Position numbers and translations under genes: made by a program
Assembly: GCA_964485695.1 (NCBI GenBank)
Contig: CAZAKZ010000177.1
Coordinates: 1-10,160, forward strand
Direction: 5' to 3'
DNA length: 10,160 nt
Source of the DNA: an uncultured Planctomycetota bacterium
GTDB taxonomy: Bacteria; Planctomycetota; JAFGQW01
The notes under the pieces: model-generated
What the model saw: only the letters and a program-made list of their open reading frames with translations
What the model was told of the DNA's origin: nothing
The model's database searches: none
Shown here: positions 327 to 10,101 of the stretch, one piece after another
How the letters are laid out: every line of letters starts with the position of its first letter
Position numbering within the stretch: the first letter of the stretch is position 1

Positions 327-1433
327 TCACAGCAGCTTGACCACCCGTTCGGCCAGGCCGCCTTCGCCCAGGACCACGTTGAGGTTGGTGGTGGCGGCCA
401 CCTTCTCCAGGACCTCGAGCTCACGCAGACGCATCAGCGTCGGGTTCGCCTCCAGGAGCCTGGCGGTGTTGGCCTGAGAACGCATGGCGGCGGTCTCCTC
501 GCGCCGCGTGATGAGCGACGCTTCGGCGGCCTTCTGCGCCTCGGTCACCTTGTTCATGAGGTCCTTCATCTCACCCGGCAGGATCACGTCCCGGATGCCG
601 AGGGACAGCACCTCGACGCCGAAGTCTGCGGCGCGGCCCTTGAGGATGTCCTCGAGAGCGCTGGCCACCGCATCCTTCCGGCCGAGGATACCGTCCAGGT
701 TCTCGGTGCCGATGACGGCTCGAAACGCGAGCTGAGCCTCACGGTAGAGAGTCTGGCTGTAGTCCTCCACCCGGGTCACGGCCCGGACCGCATCCACCAC
801 CTTGTAGGTCACCACGCCGTTCAAGCGCAGTGCGACCTTGTCGGCGGTCATGATCTCCTGGCCGGACACGTCCAGCACGGATTCGCGAAGGTCCAGGGGC
901 TGGATCGTGACCTTGCCCTCGCCCTTCCAGAAGGCGTGGGTTCCGGGCTCCAGCGTCGCTCGGTATTCCCCGTCGTGGAAGAAGAGGGCGACGTGGCCGG
1001 CCTGGACGGTGTGGGAATCGAGCCACGCGTCGGCATCCTTTGCGTTCAGGATGACGGACAGGCTTCGGTGGTCGAAGCGCACCGCCTGACGGGCGTCGAT
1101 GACTTCCACGTCCACGGTGTGGAACACCGTCCACAGAGCATACAGCCCCGGCCCGAGGATGGTCTCGAACCGTCCGTTGATCCACACCAGGGCTCGCTCG
1201 TTTTCCTTGAGGTCGATGACCCGGGCTTCCCCCTTGAGGGCTCCTGACTTCACGATGACGTCCAGGTCCGGGTGCTTGATCCACGGCGCACGCACCGACA
1301 TGGTGGAGACCCGCACTTTGAAGAGCGGGTCCACAAACCAGTGCCGGCCCGGGCCGAGGATGCCCTTGAACACCCTGTCCTTGAAGGTGAAGCCGCGTTC
1401 GAATTCGCGTACCTTGAACGTTCTTACCACCAT
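327..1433 (-). CDS. SPFH/band-7 family protein (slipin/stomatin-like), 368 aa. The C-terminal half carries the SPFH core followed by a coiled-coil-like Ala/Glu-rich tail. The N-terminal roughly 170 aa is a separate soluble domain with no transmembrane segment.
   Basis: Long ORF with consistent high-GC codon usage. The SPFH region reads 'ADKVALRLNGVVTYKVVDAVRAVTRVEDY...LGIRDVILPGEMKDLMNKVTEAQKAAEA...'. A strong RBS is visible on the minus strand ('GGAGGTG' 5 nt before the ATG at 1433). The stop is TGA at 327-329. Confidence 0.8.
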   Translation of the reverse strand: MVVRTFKVREFERGFTFKDRVFKGILGPGRHWFVDPLFKVRVSTMSVRAPWIKHPDLDVIVKSGALKGEARVIDLKENERALVWINGRFETILGPGLYALWTVFHTVDVEVIDARQAVRFDHRSLSVILNAKDADAWLDSHTVQAGHVALFFHDGEYRATLEPGTHAFWKGEGKVTIQPLDLRESVLDVSGQEIMTADKVALRLNGVVTYKVVDAVRAVTRVEDYSQTLYREAQLAFRAVIGTENLDGILGRKDAVASALEDILKGRAADFGVEVLSLGIRDVILPGEMKDLMNKVTEAQKAAEASLITRREETAAMRSQANTARLLEANPTLMRLRELEVLEKVAATTNLNVVLGEGGLAERVVKLL

Positions 1434-1799: not shown

Positions 1800-1873
1800 T
1801 GGTAGCTGACGCAGGAGTCGAACCTGCGACATCGAGTTATCAACTCGTGCTCTACCTCCTGAGCTAGTCAGCG
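1800..1873 (-). tRNA. tRNA-Ile (anticodon GAT) with encoded CCA. It is non-canonical, with a C1.U72 mismatch and an anticodon stem of only 4 bp (or 5 bp with an A.A mismatch).
   Basis: The reverse complement reads 'C-GCTGAC-TA-GCTC-AGGAGGTA-GAGC-A-CGAG-TTGATAA-CTCG-ATGTC-GCAGG-TTCGACT-CCTGC-GTCAGCT-A-CCA'. Conserved U8, the GCTC/GAGC D-stem, the T-loop TTCGA, U33 and A37 are all present, and the anticodon is GAU. Confidence 0.7.
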
Positions 1874-2482: not shown

Positions 2483-3523
2483 TCACTCGCGCTTCAGGGT
2501 CACCACCCGCTGCGGGAAGGGGATCTCGATACCCTCGTCGGCCAGGCGTTTGTACAAGGCCGTGTTCAGCTGGTCCACGGCGCGGCCGCGGAGCACCGGC
2601 TGGTCGATCCAGGCCATGACCTGGAAGATGAGGGCGGAATCTCCCAGCTCCCGGAACCGGATCCGCGGCGATGGCTGCCGGCCCAGCAGGTCGCAGCTGT
2701 CGGCCGTCTCCTTGAGCACTGTGCGCACCTGGTCCACGTCGCTCCCGTAGGCCACGCCCACGGTGACGCGGACGCGCCGCTTCTCGTGGGGGCCTCCCGT
2801 TTCGTTGACGATCTTGGTGTTGGCGATGACGTTGTTGGGGATGGTGACCTCGATGTCGTCGCGGGTCAGAATCCGGGTGGACCGGATGCCGATTTCCGTG
2901 ACGCGGCCGCGTTCGCCGGAGCCGAGGAGGATGAAGTCGCCGATCTTGTAGGGCGCGTCGGTGAGGATGAAGATGCCGGCGAAGAGGTTGGCCAGGGTGT
3001 CCTTGGCCGCGAAACCGACGGCGATGCCCACGATACCGGCGGAGGCGAGCCAGGCCGTGATGTTCACGTCCCAGGCGAGAAGGACGATGTAGAGGGCGCC
3101 GCCCCACATGAGGACCCTGTGCAGGATGCCGAACAGCGGCAGGGACCGCGCTTCGATGAACTTGTACCTGTCGGCCTTCCGGGCCAGAGCGTCCAGGACC
3201 AGATCGCCGATGCGTAGCCCCGCCCGGGTCCAAACCATGGCACCGAGGGTCACCCAGACGGAATTGGAGAAACTGAGCAGGCCCGCCTTGAGCGGCGGGT
3301 CGAAGCGGCGAAGTGCCAGGGCGATGCCAAAGAAGACCAGGGTCAGGAAGAGCGGCAGCCGCAGCGATCGGAGGATCTCGTCGTCCATGTCGGTGTGGGT
3401 GCGCCGGGCCAGGCGCAGGAGCACCCGGGTCAACAAGAACTGAAGACAGAACGCGGCGCCGAGGGAGATGAGGAGGATTTCCCACGGAGCAAGGTCCTTC
3501 AGCCAGGCCAGGATTTCATTCAT
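2483..3523 (-). CDS. mscS: Mechanosensitive ion channel, MscS family (small-conductance mechanosensitive channel), about 346 aa.
   Basis: Three N-terminal TM helices are followed by the MscS TM3/beta-domain signature 'IAVGFAAKDTLANLFAGIFILTDAPYKIGDFI...GRVTEIGIRSTRILTRDDIEVTIPNNVIANTKIVNET'. The preferred start is the ATG at 3523 (MNEILAWL...), which has the RBS 'AAGGAAG' 8 nt upstream. The track ORF runs to 3592, but that 23-aa extension has no RBS. Confidence 0.9.
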   Translation of the reverse strand: MNEILAWLKDLAPWEILLISLGAAFCLQFLLTRVLLRLARRTHTDMDDEILRSLRLPLFLTLVFFGIALALRRFDPPLKAGLLSFSNSVWVTLGAMVWTRAGLRIGDLVLDALARKADRYKFIEARSLPLFGILHRVLMWGGALYIVLLAWDVNITAWLASAGIVGIAVGFAAKDTLANLFAGIFILTDAPYKIGDFILLGSGERGRVTEIGIRSTRILTRDDIEVTIPNNVIANTKIVNETGGPHEKRRVRVTVGVAYGSDVDQVRTVLKETADSCDLLGRQPSPRIRFRELGDSALIFQVMAWIDQPVLRGRAVDQLNTALYKRLADEGIEIPFPQRVVTLKRE

Positions 3524-3679
3524 GATGGGATCTTCCTTGGTGGTGGTACGGGTGGAGATTGTAGCACTCCGGGTAGGGGGGTGAAGAGCCAATCCCCGGA
3601 AACGAAGAGAGGCCGATTCCCGGTTGCAAACCGTGCGGATCTTCGTACTCTAGGTGCCGCCCTCAAAACGCCGTGGTGG

Positions 3680-6600
3680 ATGAACATGAAAAAAACAGCG
3701 AAAACACCGGTAGGGCAGGATGTTCCGGCCCTGGTCGCCTCTGCGGCCGCCAAGTTCAGGGCAGGGGGCGATTCCCTGTCCGCCTATTCCCTGAAGAGGC
3801 TCTGCACCGCCCTGGAGGCGTGGCGCGATGCACCGGACCCGGTGGACCTGGAGGACCTTGCCACCCTGGCCGAGGAGATCACGGCCCTCCTGGGTCGGGG
3901 CACTGAAAAAGGCACTGAAAAAGAGACCGAAAAGGTCCGACACTGCGCCTGGCGTCTCCTGGATGGGGTGCGCCTGAGACCCACCCTCCGCCGGATCCAC
4001 AAGGCCGGGGCCGTGGACGCCTGGATGGATCGCATTGTCTCCCTCGTCGATGCTTCGGATTACACGGTGCATCGGTTGTTTCACCAGCGCGTCGAGCACT
4101 ACAGGGCCCGGACCCTCTTTCAAACCCTGGGGCCGGGCCGCGGCAAGCGCTGGTCCTGGTTCAACGTGGCCAGCCGGGTGGAGGCCGTGGCCAGAGGGCT
4201 GGTCGCCCTCCTCGGGGAGGATGGGCGCAAACCCGTGGCGATCCTCTCGGAGAATCGGCCCGAGATGATGTTCGTGGATCTGGCCTGCCTCACCTCGGGC
4301 CTGGTGGATGTCATGGTTCCGACCAGCTCCACCGACGCCGATGTGATATTCATCCTCCAGCACTCCCGGGCCGGCACCCTGGTTGTATCGAGGCGGGAGC
4401 ACCTCGAGAAGATCCTGGGCGAACGCGCCACCTTGCCCGATCTGGACCACATCGTCGTCATGGACGGCGCGGCGGACGACGCCCGGAACGTGCTCACGCT
4501 GCAGGATCTGATGGACCGCGGCCGTTCGGTGAAACCGGGCCGGATCAGCCGCATGGGCGGAGCCGTGTGCAGCCACGACCTGGCCACGGTGATGTACACC
4601 TCGGGAACCACCGGCCAGCCCAAGGGCATCATGTTCTCGGATCACAACATCGTGACCAAGCGATTCGCCCGGGCCCTGGCCCTGCCGGAGATCGGTGAGA
4701 AGGACGCTTTCCTCAGCTATCTGCCTCTCTGCCACACCTTCGGTAGATTCCTGGAGATGATGGGATCGATCTTCTGGGGCGCCACCTACACCTTTGTCGA
4801 GCGCCCGGCCATCGAAGTCATGGTCGAGAACTTGCAGCGGGTCCGGCCGACGGTGTTCATCAGCATTCCCAAGAAGTGGATGCAGCTCCACGAGCGCATC
4901 GCCGCCGAGGTCGACGTCGAGACGGCGCCCGAGGCCGACATCCTGGCGGCCGTCCGGGCGGTGACGGGGGGGCGCCTGCGCTGGGGGCTCTCGGCGGCGG
5001 GCTACCTCGACCCCGATATCTTCCGGTTCTTCCAGCGCCAGGGCATCGAGCTCATGAGTGGATTTGGCATGACCGAGGCCACCGGCGGGATCACCATGAC
5101 CCCCCCGGGCCACTATCGAGACGATTCCCTGGGACCGCCGCTCCCGGGCATCGAGGCCCGCCTGAGCGGGGACGGAGAGCTCATGGTCCGCGGACCGTAC
5201 GTCATGACCGGCTACCTCGATCCCGGCGGAAAATCTTCCGATCTGGACGACGGCTGGCTCAGGACGGGCGATCTCATGGAGCAGGATGCCGGTGGGCATT
5301 TTCGTATCGTCGACCGGAAAAAGGAGATCTACAAGAACGTCCGGGGCGAGACCATCGCCCCGCAACGCGTGGAGAACCTGTTCCGGGATTTCGAGGAGGT
5401 GCGCCGGATTTTTCTGGTGGGAGACCACCGCGAGTACAACACGGCCCTCATCGTTCCAAACCTCGACTACGATGGTGTGGACCTCGCCGGCATGTCTTCC
5501 GATGAGCGGCACGAGTATTTCGGTTCCCATGTGGTGTCCGTCAATCGCTTCCTCGTGCCGTACGAACGCATCATCGATTTCGCCCTCATCGACCGTGACT
5601 TCGAGGAATCTCGAGGAGAGCTCACGAAAAAGGGCACCCTGAGGCGAAGCACCATCGTGAGCCATTTCGAAGAAGTCATCGATGGACTCTACCGCCGTAC
5701 GGACCTCCGCATTCGCGGGGAGAACATCGAGATCCGCGTGGCCCGGCGCCTGCTCCAGACCCTCGGTCTCACCGCGAGTGATTTCACCGTGGAGGAGCAC
5801 GCGGTGGTGCTCCGGTCCACGAACACCCGGCTCACGGTCAAGCGGGTCAAGGACTCGGATCACGACATCGTGTTGGGCTCCTGTCGCTACAGGCTGAACC
5901 GGCCTCTCGTCGACCTGGAGCGGTTTCTGTCGGTACCGGCGCTCTGGCTCGGTAACGAGGCCCTGGTCTCGTTCGTGGACCTCGAGCCGTCCTGGCGCCG
6001 GCGCCGGCTGGGCCACCTCGAGGATGCGGTGTGGCGCGGCCGGGCGCGACCGCTTCCGGAGGCCGCCCGGCTGCGTCGGGATCTCGAGGAGAGGGTGTCG
6101 GCCCGGGATCTGGACCTCATGGACGTCCACCTTGCGGCCATGGCCGTCGAGGGCGGCCGGGACCGGGAGGCGAAGACGGGACTCCGGCTCCTGGAGCGCG
6201 CCTTCACCGATGCCAAGGACTACATGGCCGACCTGACCCTGGAGGTGCTGCGACGGACGTCGTTCTCGAAGTCCTCGGCTGTCCGGCGTCGCGGATTCCA
6301 GATCCTGGCGCCCCACGAGCGGTCCGGGATCTTCGCCGAGACCCTGAAGGCATTTCTTCCCCGCATCGATGACCTGCTGGACCGGGAGACCATCGCCCTG
6401 TTCTGCGGCCGTGGCCTGGAAGACGAGAAATTTCAGGCGTTCCTCGAGGCCGTGGAAGGCGCCTCCCCACCGGAGGGGGAAGAGACCGCAGCGATGAAGC
6501 CCCGGTTCGCGGTGGCCCTGCTTCGCTTTCTGGCGGCGTACGGTTCGAAGCACCCGGCCAAGTTCGAGGACGTGCGTTTCCAGATCATCGAGGCTCAGGT

Positions 6601-8437
6601 CAAGGCTGCATCTCCCAAGATCCGGAAGGAAGCGGGTCGGCTCCTGGATACCCTCATCGACGGTTTCCGCGCCTGGCTCGGAGAGAATCAGGTCATTGCC
6701 GTGGATCCGGAGACGGGAGAGGAATACGGGTGGGAGGACGTCATCACCATCGAGGAAGGTGTGGATCCCGAGGAGGAGCAGCGCCTCAAGGACGCCATCC
6801 GGAGCACGACGCTCATCCGCGAGTCGATCTTCCTTTTCTCCGGCAGAGAGGTGCCGCGTCTCCAGGACATCCCGCCCGGCGGCATCTGGGTGAGCCACCT
6901 CGTCACCAAGCACGGAAGATCCATCTACCGCATCACCGTCTACACGCGCCATCAGGAGTCCTACGATTTTGCGGTGCACCTGAACCGCACCCTGGGCCCC
7001 AAGAACGTCTCGGACGAGCTGAACTGGAAGGTCCTGACCTCCGAACCGCACCCCGAGCACAGTCTGGTGGAGAAGCTGGGGGGATTCTGGCCTGAGTATG
7101 GGCTCTGGACCGATGCCTTCGCGTCGGTGAACACAGTGAAGCGCTCGCTGCGTCACCTGGCCCGACAGCACGGGGAGGAAGGACGCCAGCGTCTTTGCCA
7201 GACGTGGCCCTATCTCGCCTGGAACGGCCTGGCGGCCTACTTCGATTTCTGGGCCAGGACGAATCGCACCTTGCACATCGGCAAGCCCACTCCTTCCAAC
7301 GTCATCGTTCCCGTGCACGACTACCAGACCCATACACGTATCATCTCCATTTCCAACCGACTGCCCTTCAAGGGCCTGATGCCCATGATGACGCTGCTGT
7401 GGACGCGGTTCATCGCCCAGGTGGAGGAGAAGTACGAAGTTCTCCGGGGCCTCATAAAGGGGGGCGTCCTGTTCTCGGCCCTCCTCGAGGTGGTGGGGGA
7501 GGCCGACGGACTGCGGCTGCTCCGGGAGGGCCTGGAGGAGGAACCCTGCGAGGAAGAACCGGCCTGGCTGCGGCCCGCCGTGCGAGACTTTCTGGACAAG
7601 GTGTCCCGGGTCGGATTCCGACCCTTTCGCCTGCATTTCGCGATGAAGCGGTATCGCCGGTGGGCGGCCCTCAATCCCGAGGCCGAGCCCCAGGCCCGGG
7701 CGCGCACCCTCAGGGAGCTCTACGAGGTCTACGGTCTGGAACGCCTCGCCTCCCAGCATCCGGAGGCCCGATTGCGTTTCTTCCGGGACACGGTGTTCCA
7801 GAACGCCCGGCAACCGCTGGCTTACGGCATCGACGGTCTCATCGAGCGCATGCGCGATGACCCTTTGCACAGCGACGAACTCATTGCCCGGATCTCCTCC
7901 CTCAGGGCCGGACCCGACATCGAGGCCGACGAGGACTACTTCCTGACCCGTCTCAGCTATCCCCACCTGCAGCCGGAGGACGCCGCTGATTTCATCTCTT
8001 CCATCGGAACCGGTCGGGCCGAGACCGACATCGTGGTCACCCTCGAGGATGAGCGGGGCGAGACCTTCTTCGTCCGCCGGGCCATGAATCCCAAAGAGGT
8101 CGGGCGCCTGCTCAAGCTGTTCCACGCCGCCAAGCTCGACGTGAGCTTCGGACCCGAGGACCACTACCTCGTGGCGGTGGGGGAGCGGGCGAATCTCATC
8201 GGAGGCATTTACTACGAGATCCGGGATGACGGGGAGTCTGCTCACCTGAAGAAAATCGTGGTGTCCGAGCGGTTCCGGAAAGCGGGCGTGAGCGACGGCC
8301 TCATGACGGAGTTCTTCAACCGCATGCGGGCTGCGGCCGTGAAGACCGTCACCACGGGTTTCTTTCGGCCGGAATACTTCTACGGCTATGGTTTTCGCAT
8401 CGAGCGGCGCTACGCGGGGCTGGTGAAGGTGCTTTGA
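3680..8437 (+). CDS. Very large multidomain protein, about 1585 aa. It has an N-terminal carrier-protein-like segment with a 'GGDSL' motif (about aa 1-75). This is followed by an AMP-binding (ANL) long-chain acyl-CoA-synthetase-like domain (about aa 125-675), then about 770 aa of unknown function, then a C-terminal GNAT-fold acyltransferase (about aa 1445-1585).
   Basis: The ANL core motifs were read directly: A3 'YTSGTTGQPKG' (nt 4595-4627), A5 'SGFGMTEATGG', A7 'LRTGDL', A8 'RIVDRKKEIYKNVRGETIAPQRVEN' and A10 'ELTKKGTLRR'. GNAT motif A is present as 'AHLKKIVVSERFRKAGVSDGLMTEF' (R-x-x-G-x-S). The N-terminus reads 'AAAKFRAGGDSLSAYSL...PVDLEDLATLAEEITALL' and looks PCP/ACP-like. The start is uncertain. 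ATG 3680 and ATG 3686 are both possible, with 'GGTGG' just upstream. An upstream GTG at 3581 is possible only if mscS starts at 3523. The track's 3395 start overlaps mscS and is rejected. The stop is TGA at 8435-8437. Confidence 0.85.
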   Translation: MNMKKTAKTPVGQDVPALVASAAAKFRAGGDSLSAYSLKRLCTALEAWRDAPDPVDLEDLATLAEEITALLGRGTEKGTEKETEKVRHCAWRLLDGVRLRPTLRRIHKAGAVDAWMDRIVSLVDASDYTVHRLFHQRVEHYRARTLFQTLGPGRGKRWSWFNVASRVEAVARGLVALLGEDGRKPVAILSENRPEMMFVDLACLTSGLVDVMVPTSSTDADVIFILQHSRAGTLVVSRREHLEKILGERATLPDLDHIVVMDGAADDARNVLTLQDLMDRGRSVKPGRISRMGGAVCSHDLATVMYTSGTTGQPKGIMFSDHNIVTKRFARALALPEIGEKDAFLSYLPLCHTFGRFLEMMGSIFWGATYTFVERPAIEVMVENLQRVRPTVFISIPKKWMQLHERIAAEVDVETAPEADILAAVRAVTGGRLRWGLSAAGYLDPDIFRFFQRQGIELMSGFGMTEATGGITMTPPGHYRDDSLGPPLPGIEARLSGDGELMVRGPYVMTGYLDPGGKSSDLDDGWLRTGDLMEQDAGGHFRIVDRKKEIYKNVRGETIAPQRVENLFRDFEEVRRIFLVGDHREYNTALIVPNLDYDGVDLAGMSSDERHEYFGSHVVSVNRFLVPYERIIDFALIDRDFEESRGELTKKGTLRRSTIVSHFEEVIDGLYRRTDLRIRGENIEIRVARRLLQTLGLTASDFTVEEHAVVLRSTNTRLTVKRVKDSDHDIVLGSCRYRLNRPLVDLERFLSVPALWLGNEALVSFVDLEPSWRRRRLGHLEDAVWRGRARPLPEAARLRRDLEERVSARDLDLMDVHLAAMAVEGGRDREAKTGLRLLERAFTDAKDYMADLTLEVLRRTSFSKSSAVRRRGFQILAPHERSGIFAETLKAFLPRIDDLLDRETIALFCGRGLEDEKFQAFLEAVEGASPPEGEETAAMKPRFAVALLRFLAAYGSKHPAKFEDVRFQIIEAQVKAASPKIRKEAGRLLDTLIDGFRAWLGENQVIAVDPETGEEYGWEDVITIEEGVDPEEEQRLKDAIRSTTLIRESIFLFSGREVPRLQDIPPGGIWVSHLVTKHGRSIYRITVYTRHQESYDFAVHLNRTLGPKNVSDELNWKVLTSEPHPEHSLVEKLGGFWPEYGLWTDAFASVNTVKRSLRHLARQHGEEGRQRLCQTWPYLAWNGLAAYFDFWARTNRTLHIGKPTPSNVIVPVHDYQTHTRIISISNRLPFKGLMPMMTLLWTRFIAQVEEKYEVLRGLIKGGVLFSALLEVVGEADGLRLLREGLEEEPCEEEPAWLRPAVRDFLDKVSRVGFRPFRLHFAMKRYRRWAALNPEAEPQARARTLRELYEVYGLERLASQHPEARLRFFRDTVFQNARQPLAYGIDGLIERMRDDPLHSDELIARISSLRAGPDIEADEDYFLTRLSYPHLQPEDAADFISSIGTGRAETDIVVTLEDERGETFFVRRAMNPKEVGRLLKLFHAAKLDVSFGPEDHYLVAVGERANLIGGIYYEIRDDGESAHLKKIVVSERFRKAGVSDGLMTEFFNRMRAAAVKTVTTGFFRPEYFYGYGFRIERRYAGLVKVL
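3899..3934 (+). repeat. In-frame 12-bp tandem repeat (ggcactgaaaaa x2 plus a degenerate third copy, gagaccgaaaag). It encodes GTEK-GTEK-ETEK in the linker between the carrier-like segment and the ANL domain.
   Basis: Seen directly. 3899-3910 equals 3911-3922 exactly. It is an AT-rich island inside a roughly 70% GC gene. A unit of 12 bp means copy-number change would stay in frame. Confidence 0.5.
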
Positions 8438-8471
8438 AGAAAGGGATGTTGGAGCCCGCATTACCAGGCGA

Positions 8472-8493
8472 GGGGGGGGGAATTCCGGAATTC
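8472..8493. repeat. Homopolymeric (G)9 tract (8472-8480) immediately abutting a perfect 14-bp palindrome GAATTCCGGAATTC (8480-8493). Both lie in the intergenic region downstream of the large CDS and about 200 bp upstream of the secreted-protein gene.
   Basis: Seen directly in the sequence. Confidence 0.5.
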
Positions 8494-8645
8494 GACGCGG
8501 ATTGACGCTCTGGACGGCATTCCAGGCCCCGGGTTGGACCGGAAATCGTTGTGGACGCACCCGGTTTCAGCGGATACTATTGGGAATGCCGAACCCTGAT
8601 TGAGGGGATCGTACCAAGGGATCCGGGTGCCCTATATTTGACACT

Positions 8646-8694: not shown

Positions 8695-10101
8695 ATGAAG
8701 AGGTTGATTGTTCTCGTCTGCGTTGCCGCAGTCCTGGGGGCCAGCCCGGGGATTGATACAGCCCCGGGGCAGAACTACCACGATCCCGCGTATCTCTGCG
8801 GTGGGTACCAGGCCCTGAATCCGAGCACAGCCGTTGCCGGCGGCGTCTGGGTGGTCCGCGGCGACGGCTCGGCCACATCCGTGGCGCTTCCCCACTACAA
8901 CCACTATGGATTCTGCATGGACGCGGACAACAAGCACATCGTCGTCGCCACCCGGGGGAACATCAATACCTCCATCAACATGGGTGCCCAGTACGGAATC
9001 TACCGTTTTGACCCCAATACCTTGACCTACCAGACCCTCCACGGTCCGGATACGATGCATTGCTACTCGCTCTACAACCTTCACGTCAACCAGGACGGGG
9101 ATTACCTCTTCAACACCCAGGTGAGGCGATGGACCGGATCTACCAACGTGTTCGACTACCAGGTGATGAAGCTTGCGTACAACGGCACCCTCTCCACGCT
9201 TCTCACCACGTCTCAGCTCGGACGCAATGCCTACCTGTATGGAGCCATCGGTACGAACATCGATAACGGCAAGAACCTCGTGTGCGACTTGATCAGCGGT
9301 ACGGGGTACCGGTATCCGGTCCTCGAGCTGGCCCCCGACGGCACCGTCAATACCTGGAGCACGGGAGGAACCTACGGCTGGTACGGCTACTACCAGGCCC
9401 CTCAGAACCACCTGACCGGCGATATCGAGGGCCCGTACGCCTCCAACGTGTATCAGATCAAGCCAGGGACGACCGCCCGCACCACTCTGTTCACTCTCCG
9501 GGCCGGGTCCGCGATCAGCAACTACCACTACAACTATCAGTTCGATCTCCAGACGGCGCCAGTGCAGCGCTGGGTTGGAACGCCCTATTCCACCACGGGC
9601 GGCAACAAGCAGTGGATCGGATACGTCGATCGCTCCACCGGCGCACTGACCTCCATCCACGTCACCGGCACGGGCGCCAGGTACGCCTATTACTACGACT
9701 TCGATTTCTACCGCGGAAACCACATCCAGACATTGAAGATCGCCAGCAACAAATGGATGTTGCTCCTGAGCTGTCCGCGAAGCCCCGGATATGCCTACGT
9801 TGTTGGGGCGAGCTTCTCGGGAATCCGGCCGGGCATTTCGGTTGCGGGTGGGCGCCGCATCAACATCAACGTGGACAACCTCCTGGTTGCCACGGTACTG
9901 AACCGGTTACCAGGCGTCTGGAACTCCGGGCCGGGGGTATTGAACGCCAGCGGGGAAGCGCGGGGGATGCTGGACCTGAGCTTTCTGAAGGTCCCGCCGG
10001 GCGGTTTCGGCATCCCGCTGTGGATCGCCATGGTGGTGCTTGACCACAAGGCGCCCGGAGGGATCAAGTACATCCCCGATACCTACGTGATACGCATCTG
10101 A
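8695..10101 (+). CDS. Secreted hypothetical protein, 468 aa, with an N-terminal Sec signal peptide (MKRLIVLVCVAAVLGASPG). The mature protein is rich in Tyr/Asn/Gly/Thr (for example YGWYGYYQAPQNH, NYHYNYQFDL, YAYYYDFDFYRGNH) and is probably a beta-rich surface or extracellular protein.
   Basis: Strong RBS 'GGAGG' 7 nt upstream of the ATG at 8695. The N-terminus has a positively charged n-region, a hydrophobic h-region and a small-residue c-region. There is no lipobox. The upstream in-frame extension (track start 8551) spans the promoter repeats and is rejected. GC is about 56% and GC3 about 70%, both clearly lower than the neighbouring genes. Confidence 0.8.
   Translation: MKRLIVLVCVAAVLGASPGIDTAPGQNYHDPAYLCGGYQALNPSTAVAGGVWVVRGDGSATSVALPHYNHYGFCMDADNKHIVVATRGNINTSINMGAQYGIYRFDPNTLTYQTLHGPDTMHCYSLYNLHVNQDGDYLFNTQVRRWTGSTNVFDYQVMKLAYNGTLSTLLTTSQLGRNAYLYGAIGTNIDNGKNLVCDLISGTGYRYPVLELAPDGTVNTWSTGGTYGWYGYYQAPQNHLTGDIEGPYASNVYQIKPGTTARTTLFTLRAGSAISNYHYNYQFDLQTAPVQRWVGTPYSTTGGNKQWIGYVDRSTGALTSIHVTGTGARYAYYYDFDFYRGNHIQTLKIASNKWMLLLSCPRSPGYAYVVGASFSGIRPGISVAGGRRININVDNLLVATVLNRLPGVWNSGPGVLNASGEARGMLDLSFLKVPPGGFGIPLWIAMVVLDHKAPGGIKYIPDTYVIRI

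Follow-up and report, generated by a model that had tools for sequence, protein, structure and literature searches.

The subject of this study is a gene of 1,585 codons plus a stop codon (positions 3680 to 8437, + strand) in a 10,160-nucleotide stretch of DNA, hereafter the window, from an uncultured Planctomycetota bacterium (contig CAZAKZ010000177.1, assembly GCA_964485695.1). We found that this giant gene joins in one polypeptide an AMP-forming acyl-CoA synthetase module of the ANL type, a platform of about 760 residues that is predicted to contain a degenerate kinase fold, and, at the C-terminus, a GNAT domain that resembles GCN5. The three keep this strict order in relatives down to 20% identity, which implies a strongly selected, integrated function. 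Our tentative best reading, which rests on sequence, structure models and analogy, is of a Pat-like enzyme for protein acylation that would be supplied with acyl-CoA by its own AMP-forming module. All of the component folds are known; their combination, with the degenerate kinase platform, is not described in the literature searched. That literature (on ANL-GNAT fusions, GNAT architectures, FAAL/GNAT, Ebony and ACAD10/11) held no study of the ANL-GNAT architecture, only of analogues. An earlier annotation made from the sequence of the window, the original prediction, had not recognized the arrangement of an ANL domain, a middle module and a GNAT domain. That assessment stands, since we found no paper describing it and no curated family for it, with no Pfam family for the middle and no NCBIfam model for the whole protein.

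The gene and its predicted parts are as follows.

3680..8437, + strand: whole gene, 1,585 codons plus stop
3680..4015, + strand: N-terminal extension, aa 1-112
4016..5323, + strand: ANL large N-terminal subdomain, aa 113-548 (PF00501)
4595-4627, + strand: motif A3, YTSGTTGQPKG, aa 306-316
5060-5077, + strand: motif A5, GFGMTE, aa 461-466
5264-5272, + strand: motif A7, TGD, aa 529-531
5312-5377, + strand: motif A8/FACS signature, aa 545-566
5324..5701, + strand: ANL small C-terminal subdomain, aa 549-674 (PF23562)
5627-5647, + strand: motif A10, KKGTLRR, aa 650-656, with lysine K651
5702..6049, + strand: beta-rich domain, aa 675-790, with conserved PNW...LWLGN (LWLGN at 5942-5956); AlphaFold2 model mc387d38fbfe3, pLDDT about 90
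6062..6679, + strand: all-alpha helical repeat, aa 795-1000, tentatively HEAT-like; AlphaFold2 model
6692..7375, + strand: protein-kinase-like (PKL) alpha/beta fold, aa 1005-1232, with G-loop-like LGxxHGKSVYR
7376..7963, + strand: helical bundle between the kinase-like fold and the GNAT domain, aa 1233-1428, with conserved RYxRW, YPExRxRFF and DYFLxRL; from models and conservation
7982..8434, + strand: C-terminal GNAT acyltransferase domain, aa 1435-1585
8240-8263, + strand: GNAT beta4 strand, AHLKKIVV
8270-8290, + strand: CoA pyrophosphate motif, RFRKAGV (R1533-K-A-G1536-V-S1538), of the form R/Q-x-x-G-x-A/S/G

The giant gene is a genuine fusion

As the original prediction had it, the protein of about 1,585 residues is encoded in one uninterrupted frame. 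The frame is open from 3395 to 8437 on the + strand, its first ATG lies at 3680, and translation from there gives 1,585 residues, the same product that gene callers report in three public assemblies. The second ATG, at 3686, is an alternative start with better spacing to a GGTGG Shine-Dalgarno-like run. GC content by codon position in this frame is 0.67/0.43/0.835, a strong coding signature, in a window whose GC content is mostly 0.59-0.69. On the opposite strand, an open reading frame (ORF) of 1,636 codons (3650..8560, - strand) was rejected as a gene: its GC values of 0.83/0.44/0.66 mirror those of the + frame and its Arg/Gly/Pro-rich translation has no motifs, as in a shadow ORF of a high-GC gene.

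The original prediction had raised the concern that the fusion might be a product of assembly. That two or three genes were joined by a sequencing or assembly error, or that the gene is a decaying pseudogene, has next to no probability; we regard this explanation as effectively refuted and the fusion as genuine. The argument for decay is that, of 98 highly conserved positions, the window protein departs from its family at 11, where the family median is 2. Two of its changes, D1202K (nt 7283-7285) and E1524K (nt 8249-8251), are unique among about 117 sequences, and other substitutions are E1145D and E1146A (nt 7112-7117), R1159H (7154-7156) and G1218H (7331-7333). Set against this, the exact 1,585-residue protein recurs, with constant neighbours, on five contigs that were assembled independently and come from at least three samples, and hundreds of genomes, closed chromosomes of metagenome-assembled genomes (MAGs) included, show the same length and domain order. 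The coding signature, with a third-position GC of 0.835, is likewise strong, and the ANL motifs are all intact. Moreover, the closest relative, P0002 (61-63% identical), itself has 9 deviations, and much of the divergence is common to both proteins, which points to a divergent Planctomycetota clade rather than to a pseudogene. Given the substitutions at several family-invariant residues of the kinase-like fold and at the conserved acidic residue of GNAT beta4, the transferase of the window protein may be weakened or altered.

The architecture recurs across phyla

The original prediction had proposed a search for homologues with the same fusion in other genomes, and these proved plentiful. With residues 675-1585 as the query, more than 100 proteins were returned, nearly all of 1,500-1,600 residues and with PF00501, PF23562 and PF00583. 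A scan of one genome per species placed relatives in at least 473 species-level genomes, spread over about 7 phyla. Carriers among the matches listed belong to Planctomycetota, Acidobacteriota, Gemmatimonadota, Eisenbacteria, KSB1, Calditrichia and Ignavibacteria, with Planctomycetota closest at 62%. Some carriers of the giant gene are closed chromosomes of MAGs, and one is a cultured organism, 'Acidobacteria bacterium Mor1' (CP011806, locus L047), whose protein is consensus-like. When 1.84 billion cluster representatives were searched exhaustively with HMMER, 306 relatives (clusters) of the middle module were recovered. This module occurs solely within the giant architecture, at residues of about 650-1440 in complete relatives of about 1,500-1,640 residues, and members that are only 20-22% identical still have the ANL and GNAT domains at the two ends. 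Automated annotation calls the homologues 'AMP-binding protein' or 'GNAT family N-acetyltransferase'. None of the PADLOC models of anti-phage defence systems matched (0 families).

A 923-residue protein, P0067, was considered as a natural split version of the fusion and rejected, as frameshifted ANL fragments precede it; the remaining short matches to the giant protein are fragments at contig ends. On a 1.68-Mb long-read MAG contig (L003:6005-10772), the orthologue is called as genes of 469, 186 and 923 aa, most likely through frameshift errors, and frameshifted calls of this kind can pass for natural 'split' versions.

In what follows, family-wide Pfam results refer to a scan of 30 members at E ≤ 10, the invariance of ANL residues to an alignment (A1) of 30 members at 32-63% identity, and column statistics to 117 sequences for the kinase-like fold and 116 for the GNAT domain.

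The synthetase module has an intact set of catalytic motifs

The full set of ANL motifs that had been predicted (A3, A5, A7, A8 and A10) is present at the places listed above. Pfam AMP-binding (PF00501) matched residues 135-513 with E=2.8e-64 and 217.8 bits, against a gathering score of 29.9, and it matched all 30 members; AMP-binding_C_3 (PF23562) matched residues 554-674 with E=3e-10. Residues S308-G316, G461-E466, D531, D545-K548, T649, K651 and R656 are invariant. The nearest NCBIfam models are FadD11 and long-chain-fatty-acid--CoA ligase, and none of the 102 matched models reached its cut-off, the best being FadD11 with 220 bits against 950. The AMP-binding_C_3 match, together with the FACS signature DGWLRTGD...DRKKEIYK, suggests that the module is a CoA ligase of the ACSL type rather than a FAAL. 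Thus an AMP-forming, long-chain-type ANL domain does lie in cis with a C-terminal GNAT domain and a large module between them, as had been proposed. The A5 motif (GFGMTE) has a Gly at what we take to be the place of the Trp that closes the acyl pocket of Acs (WWQTE), which argues that the module would not be restricted to acetate.

ACSL/FadD11-type synthetases share the AMP-binding and AMP-binding_C_3 domains, the FACS signature and the A10 lysine with the giant protein, which differs from them in its N-terminal and C-terminal extensions of 112 and 911 residues.

The N-terminal extension (aa 1-112) is the least conserved part of the protein and is missing in several of the homologues in alignment A1. 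The original prediction had described a carrier-like segment here, a claim that did not hold. An N-terminal carrier domain was rejected as a candidate: PP-binding (PF00550) matched neither the window protein (E ≤ 1) nor a single one of the 30 members (E ≤ 10), and the GGDSL sequence at residues 29-33 (nt 3764-3778) is unique to the window protein, being found in 0 of 29 aligned homologues. With no carrier domain there is no tethered thiol, so CoA is the probable acyl shuttle; acyl groups, if they are passed from the ANL module to the GNAT domain, would likely travel on free or channelled CoA.

The closest solved relatives of the GNAT domain are GCN5 and PCAF

The C-terminal domain has the GNAT fold, and the motif A region that had been predicted at the C-terminal end is present as R1533-x-x-G1536-x-S1538. 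Across the family, motif A has R or Q in 111, G in 100 and A, S or G in all 116 sequences, and the C-terminal tail of the domain is extremely conserved. The proposed Pfam check for both AMP-binding and GNAT domains came out clearly for the former, whereas the GNAT domain of the window protein scored 18.7 bits against Acetyltransf_1, just below the gathering score of 20.7; GNAT families matched in all 30 members, with a best E of 5.9e-10.

Searches of the PDB were made with profiles from domain-only alignments, A4 for the kinase-like core and A5 for the GNAT domain, as a search with the 120-sequence alignment A2 returned ANL enzymes only, since its full-length rows put ANL columns into the profile. 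With the GNAT profile, the best-scoring solved relative was Tetrahymena GCN5 (3.4e-10); PCAF, KAT2A and KAT2B came next (2-6e-4). PatZ, AcuA and mycobacterial Pat were not within the best 60 PDB sequence matches of this profile, and the 20 Pfam families that have a match in at least one of the 30 members include no GNAT family of the OlsB/NAS type (e.g. PF13444).

Motif A and the C-terminal 'G-F' motif of the giant protein align with those of GCN5/PCAF (KAT2). The giant protein differs from these enzymes in having no bromodomain and no PCAF N-terminal region, in its bacterial context, and in the residues at the catalytic Glu, to which we return below.

The middle platform is predicted to contain a degenerate kinase fold

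The region between the ANL and GNAT domains had been called about 770 residues of unknown sequence. At the level of sequence this holds: these 760-770 residues matched no Pfam family in any of the 30 members and no NCBIfam model, and under any reading they define at least one new sequence family, with about 760 residues that lack Pfam coverage. At the level of fold it does not, as the proposed AlphaFold and Foldseek analysis yielded four modelled domains, namely a beta-rich domain, a tentatively HEAT-like repeat, a kinase-like fold and a helical bundle. AlphaFold2 modelled residues 675-1585 as a single compact body (mean pLDDT 92.9, pTM 0.87, from the 120-sequence alignment). The helical repeat (aa 795-1000) gave faint Foldseek matches to PP2A-A and mTOR, and there are sub-threshold Pfam HEAT/HEAT_2 matches in the distant members P0156 and P0139. 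Very weak PqqD/RRE-like Pfam matches to the beta-rich domain in two members (E=0.35) carry no evidential weight.

Residues 1005-1232 are modelled with the bilobal arrangement of a kinase fold. At the sequence level, no Pfam kinase, APH, RIO or ABC1 family matched any of the 30 members, and no PDB chain matched the kinase-like core profile A4 at E ≤ 10. We assigned equivalents of kinase residues by the order of the motifs and the secondary structure predicted for them, rather than by superposing coordinates. On this assignment the beta3 Lys is never present (N in 85, H in 20, S in 7 and T in 3 of the 117 sequences). The alphaC Glu, E1113, is kept in 115, R1084 on beta2 in 116, and the DFG-like Asp, D1214 in 'HDY' (7313-7324), in all 117. 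The catalytic-loop position, 1202, is D in 76, E in 15 and another residue in 26 sequences; it is acidic in 78% of members and P, N, R, Q, A or K in the other 22%, with Lys in the window protein, and position 1207, five residues on, is N in 78. We read this domain as a probable pseudokinase or non-canonical ligand-binding module. A HEAT-like repeat and a degenerate kinase fold are typical interaction or sensor modules.

The atypical and small-molecule PKL enzymes (Bud32, Rio, APH/ChoK/homoserine kinase II and ACAD10/11) share the G-loop-like motif, the alphaC Glu and the DFG-like Asp, and in ACAD10/11 an APH-like domain can act on acyl-CoA (PMC12440821). Identity to these enzymes is about 10%, however, and they differ from the giant protein, in which the beta3 lysine is absent from 117 of 117 sequences, the catalytic-loop Asp is not conserved and the kinase-like fold is embedded between HEAT-like and helical domains.

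Proposed function of the giant protein

The giant protein would be a soluble, single-polypeptide 'acyl writer' that converts a free carboxylic acid into an acyl mark on a protein. To begin, the ACSL/FadD-type ANL module would adenylate a carboxylic acid, probably not limited to acetate, and form its acyl-CoA thioester, as the intact catalytic motifs suggest. The GNAT domain, judging from its fold, its CoA-binding motif and its similarity to GCN5/PCAF, would then use acyl-CoA, most economically that made by the adjacent ANL module, to N-acylate an amine, most likely a lysine or the N-terminus of a protein. Finally, the rigid platform of about 760 residues (the beta domain, the HEAT-like repeat, the kinase-like fold without an ATP-anchoring lysine and the helical bundle) may position the GNAT domain and either dock the protein substrate or sense a nucleotide or acyl-CoA, as in the regulatory domains of the Pat/PatZ type.

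We favour a protein acyltransferase because the GNAT domain is GCN5/PCAF-like, because the platform combines a HEAT-like repeat with a pseudokinase, and because Pat/PatZ offer a precedent for the fusion. Bacterial lysine acetyltransferases (KATs) of types I and II, including PatZ, fuse an acyl-CoA-synthetase-like domain to a GNAT domain (PMC11254643, PMC12184503). The Pat/PatZ (YfiQ) enzymes are likewise large (>80 kDa) and multidomain, with a synthetase-related module fused to a single GNAT domain; their non-GNAT part shapes and regulates the GNAT domain (PMC12184503, PMC11254643), to which we liken the giant protein, and both are tied to acyl-CoA metabolism. In Pat, however, the extra domain has a regulatory role and is a member of the NDP-forming acyl-CoA synthetase superfamily, whereas the giant protein has an AMP-forming ANL module with intact catalytic motifs, and the NDP-forming acyl-CoA synthetase Pfam domain (CoA-binding plus ATP-grasp) had no match in any of the 30 members. 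The giant protein differs further in the intervening platform of about 760 residues with its beta, HEAT-like, kinase-like and helical domains. In the classification of KATs (GNAT types I-V), no type has an AMP-forming synthetase or a kinase-like fold (PMC11254643).

Among 80 species loci, citrate synthase (PF00285, E about 1e-94) is the sole neighbour that recurs across several phyla; it lies near the giant gene in 37 of the 80 (L006-L077), and examples are these.

L028:9248-10582, - strand: citrate synthase (PF00285)
L053:8694-10148, - strand: citrate synthase (PF00285)
L041:2476-3813, + strand: citrate synthase (PF00285)

As a rule, 60-600 nt separate it from the 3' end of the giant gene; it occurs on either strand, and sometimes upstream, and the citrate synthases are 28-100% identical. 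Judged by record titles, it is present in about 25 of 30 Gemmatimonadota loci and in about 12 from other groups (Acidobacteriota, Eisenbacteria, one 'Cytophagia' MAG). As many Gemmatimonadota and Acidobacteriota have citrate synthase beside the gene, the giant protein would most likely act in central acyl-CoA metabolism.

Several observations weigh against a protein acyltransferase. There is a mismatch between a long-chain-like ANL module and the short acyl-CoAs that are usual for GCN5-type GNATs, unless the ANL module takes a short or medium substrate or the GNAT domain has an enlarged pocket. Aligned with the GCN5 catalytic Glu ('FAE') is H1522, a near-invariant residue (His in 108 of 116 sequences); an acidic residue occurs two positions later, at 1524 (E or D in 114 of 116, Lys in the window protein). 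The structural and sequence neighbours of the GNAT domain separate protein acceptors from small-molecule ones poorly, and generic bacterial GNATs score near PCAF. Citrate synthase is absent from the window, from the loci of the Planctomycetota relatives (L004 and L005) and from many Acidobacteriota, and its adjacency could be inherited synteny. Finally, no deacylase was seen among the neighbours at the loci examined.

It is possible, if unlikely, that the protein is a self-regulating acyl-CoA synthetase, in which the GNAT domain would acylate the A10 lysine K651, its own or that of a neighbouring subunit, when acyl-CoA accumulates, with the platform as a sensor of energy or of a ligand. Such a protein would bring the Acs-Pat or AcsA-AcuA(-AcuB) circuit together in one molecule; this reading is compatible with our best reading and not distinguishable from it on present data. 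K651 is invariant and the GNAT domain is like that of protein KATs, and the retained G-loop-like motif, alphaC Glu and DFG-like Asp fit ligand binding without catalysis. The neighbours citrate synthase and malonyl-CoA decarboxylase use or make acetyl-CoA, and interacting partners are commonly gene-fused. Against this, the A10 region (ELTPKGTPRR) presumably lacks the PX4GK context of Pat-type enzymes, an appendage of 900 residues is a heavy investment for feedback control, and the lack of a deacylase partner among the neighbours counts here as well. In favour of this reading, the best-established functional link between ANL and GNAT enzymes in bacteria is that Pat or AcuA, in a physical complex with the synthetase, acetylates its A10 lysine (PMC11255334). 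The activity of Pat and AcuA is tuned by nucleotide or energy sensors (PMC13121692, PMC12184503), and AcuB is an additional sensor protein that reads energy charge (PMC13121692). Both AcsA-AcuA and Acs-Pat consist of separate polypeptides with an acetate-specific Acs, whereas the giant protein has everything in cis. The original prediction had put first an enzyme that would activate a free fatty acid and N-acylate an amine, amino acid or protein substrate with it, and had put a Pat-like acyl-lysine transferase second. The evidence tilts to the second: the GNAT domain has GCN5/PCAF relatives and no OlsB/NAS family, and there are the platform, the lack of a membrane segment and the lack of lipid neighbours.

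We judge the first, as a self-contained N-acyl amide or lipoamino-acid synthase, to be unlikely as well. Here the ANL domain would activate a free fatty acid, and the GNAT domain would pass the acyl group to a small molecule (an amine, an amino acid or a polyamine) to which the middle module binds. The case for it begins with the ANL module, which is nearest to long-chain fatty-acid--CoA ligases and has the FACS signature, and draws on Drosophila Ebony, an A-T-GNAT-like enzyme that reportedly makes an amide (Izore et al. 2019, as cited in PMC8072286). Ebony combines in one polypeptide an adenylating ANL domain and a GNAT-fold, AANAT-like transferase, which is its amine-selecting domain. Its acyl shuttle is a phosphopantetheinyl carrier domain, however, where the giant protein has no carrier, and it lacks the kinase-like and HEAT modules that the giant protein has. 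GNATs are known to make N-acyl amino acids (PMC11631085), and lipid-related neighbours (PEMT/ICMT and PAP2_C) do occur occasionally. On the other side, none of the 30 members has an OlsB/NAS-type GNAT signal, the nearest sequence relatives of the GNAT domain are histone acetyltransferases, and no lipid-biosynthesis gene, O-acyltransferase, transporter or other biosynthetic gene is a conserved neighbour at the loci examined. No transmembrane segment or membrane association is predicted for the giant protein, and it has no carrier domain. In E. coli Aas (acyl-ACP synthetase / 2-acyl-GPE acyltransferase), an ANL domain is likewise fused to an acyltransferase. Aas is a membrane protein with a PlsC-type O-acyltransferase that uses ACP, whereas the giant protein has a GNAT domain and no predicted membrane segment, PlsC (PF01553) had no match in the window protein or the 30 members, and the Aas model NF005291 gives a weak match, to the ANL region only (E=4e-27). 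Still less probable is a trifunctional small-molecule enzyme, in which the kinase-like fold would be active in most members as a non-canonical kinase or ATPase, with R1084/R1090 in place of the beta3 lysine, and a single metabolite would pass through the three activities in turn. There are kinases whose catalytic lysine is displaced (WNK) and enzymes that combine GNAT and kinase activities (AAC(6')-APH(2'')), and the acidic catalytic-loop residue in 78% of members with an Asn five residues on, the universal DFG-like Asp, and the alphaC Glu (115/117) and R1084 (116/117) would suit it. It has to contend with the absence of the beta3 lysine from all 117 sequences, the loss of the catalytic-loop Asp in 22% of members, the window protein included, which have P, N, R, Q, A or K instead, and the lack of sequence similarity to any kinase family, whether by Pfam in 30 members or in the PDB with profile A4.

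If the giant protein is a self-fuelling acyltransferase or a self-regulating synthetase, it would represent a new regulatory architecture in central carbon and acyl-CoA metabolism and a bacterial case of a pseudokinase that serves as an enzyme scaffold. Its carriers comprise hundreds of species from phyla of soil, sediment and sea that are abundant yet poorly cultured. We think it quite doubtful, though conceivable, that the family constitutes a new class of protein-acylation writer, which would couple the availability of a free acid to the acylation of targets through on-board acyl-CoA that is passed to the GCN5-like domain, with the pseudokinase/HEAT platform gating this transfer on a nucleotide or acyl-CoA signal. 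Citrate synthase, other enzymes of central metabolism and possibly the protein itself would be candidate targets. With such a class, Gemmatimonadota, Acidobacteriota, Planctomycetota, Ignavibacteria and their allies would sense metabolites without recourse to the bulk pool of acyl-CoA. If the giant protein is instead an amide-forming biosynthetic enzyme, it would be a compact, carrier-free, ATP-driven N-acylation catalyst of biotechnological interest.

Genomic surroundings

In the window the giant gene stands alone, and its surroundings are the following.

327..1433, - strand: SPFH/Band 7 protein (E=7e-34), upstream and divergent
1800..1873, - strand: tRNA-Ile (anticodon GAT; ARAGORN and Rfam), between the SPFH and MscS genes
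2483..3592, - strand: MscS-type mechanosensitive channel with three MS_channel domains, upstream and divergent; public calls start later (346 aa)
8695..10101, + strand: putative secreted protein of 468 aa with a signal-peptide-like N-terminus (MKRLIVLVCVAAVLGA), 258 nt downstream

The 468-residue protein has no Pfam match and is rich in Gly, Tyr, Thr and Asn. At 2001-2500, from the tRNA to the 3' end of the MscS gene, GC content falls to 0.51, and this interval has no family-matched ORF and no Rfam match.

Apart from citrate synthase, the recurring neighbours of the giant gene show lineage-specific synteny only: genes for DUF748-like and DUF2062 proteins, multihaem cytochromes and GlgC, and an overlapping ORF of 297 aa. 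At a Holophagae locus (L089), a gene for malonyl-CoA decarboxylase (6302-7630, - strand) lies divergently upstream of the giant gene, and a 292-residue ORF that belongs to no family (L089:12755-13633, + strand) overlaps the giant gene's stop codon. In 7 related loci a homologous ORF, of about 297 residues, overlaps the stop codon in the same way (e.g. L079:8679-9572).

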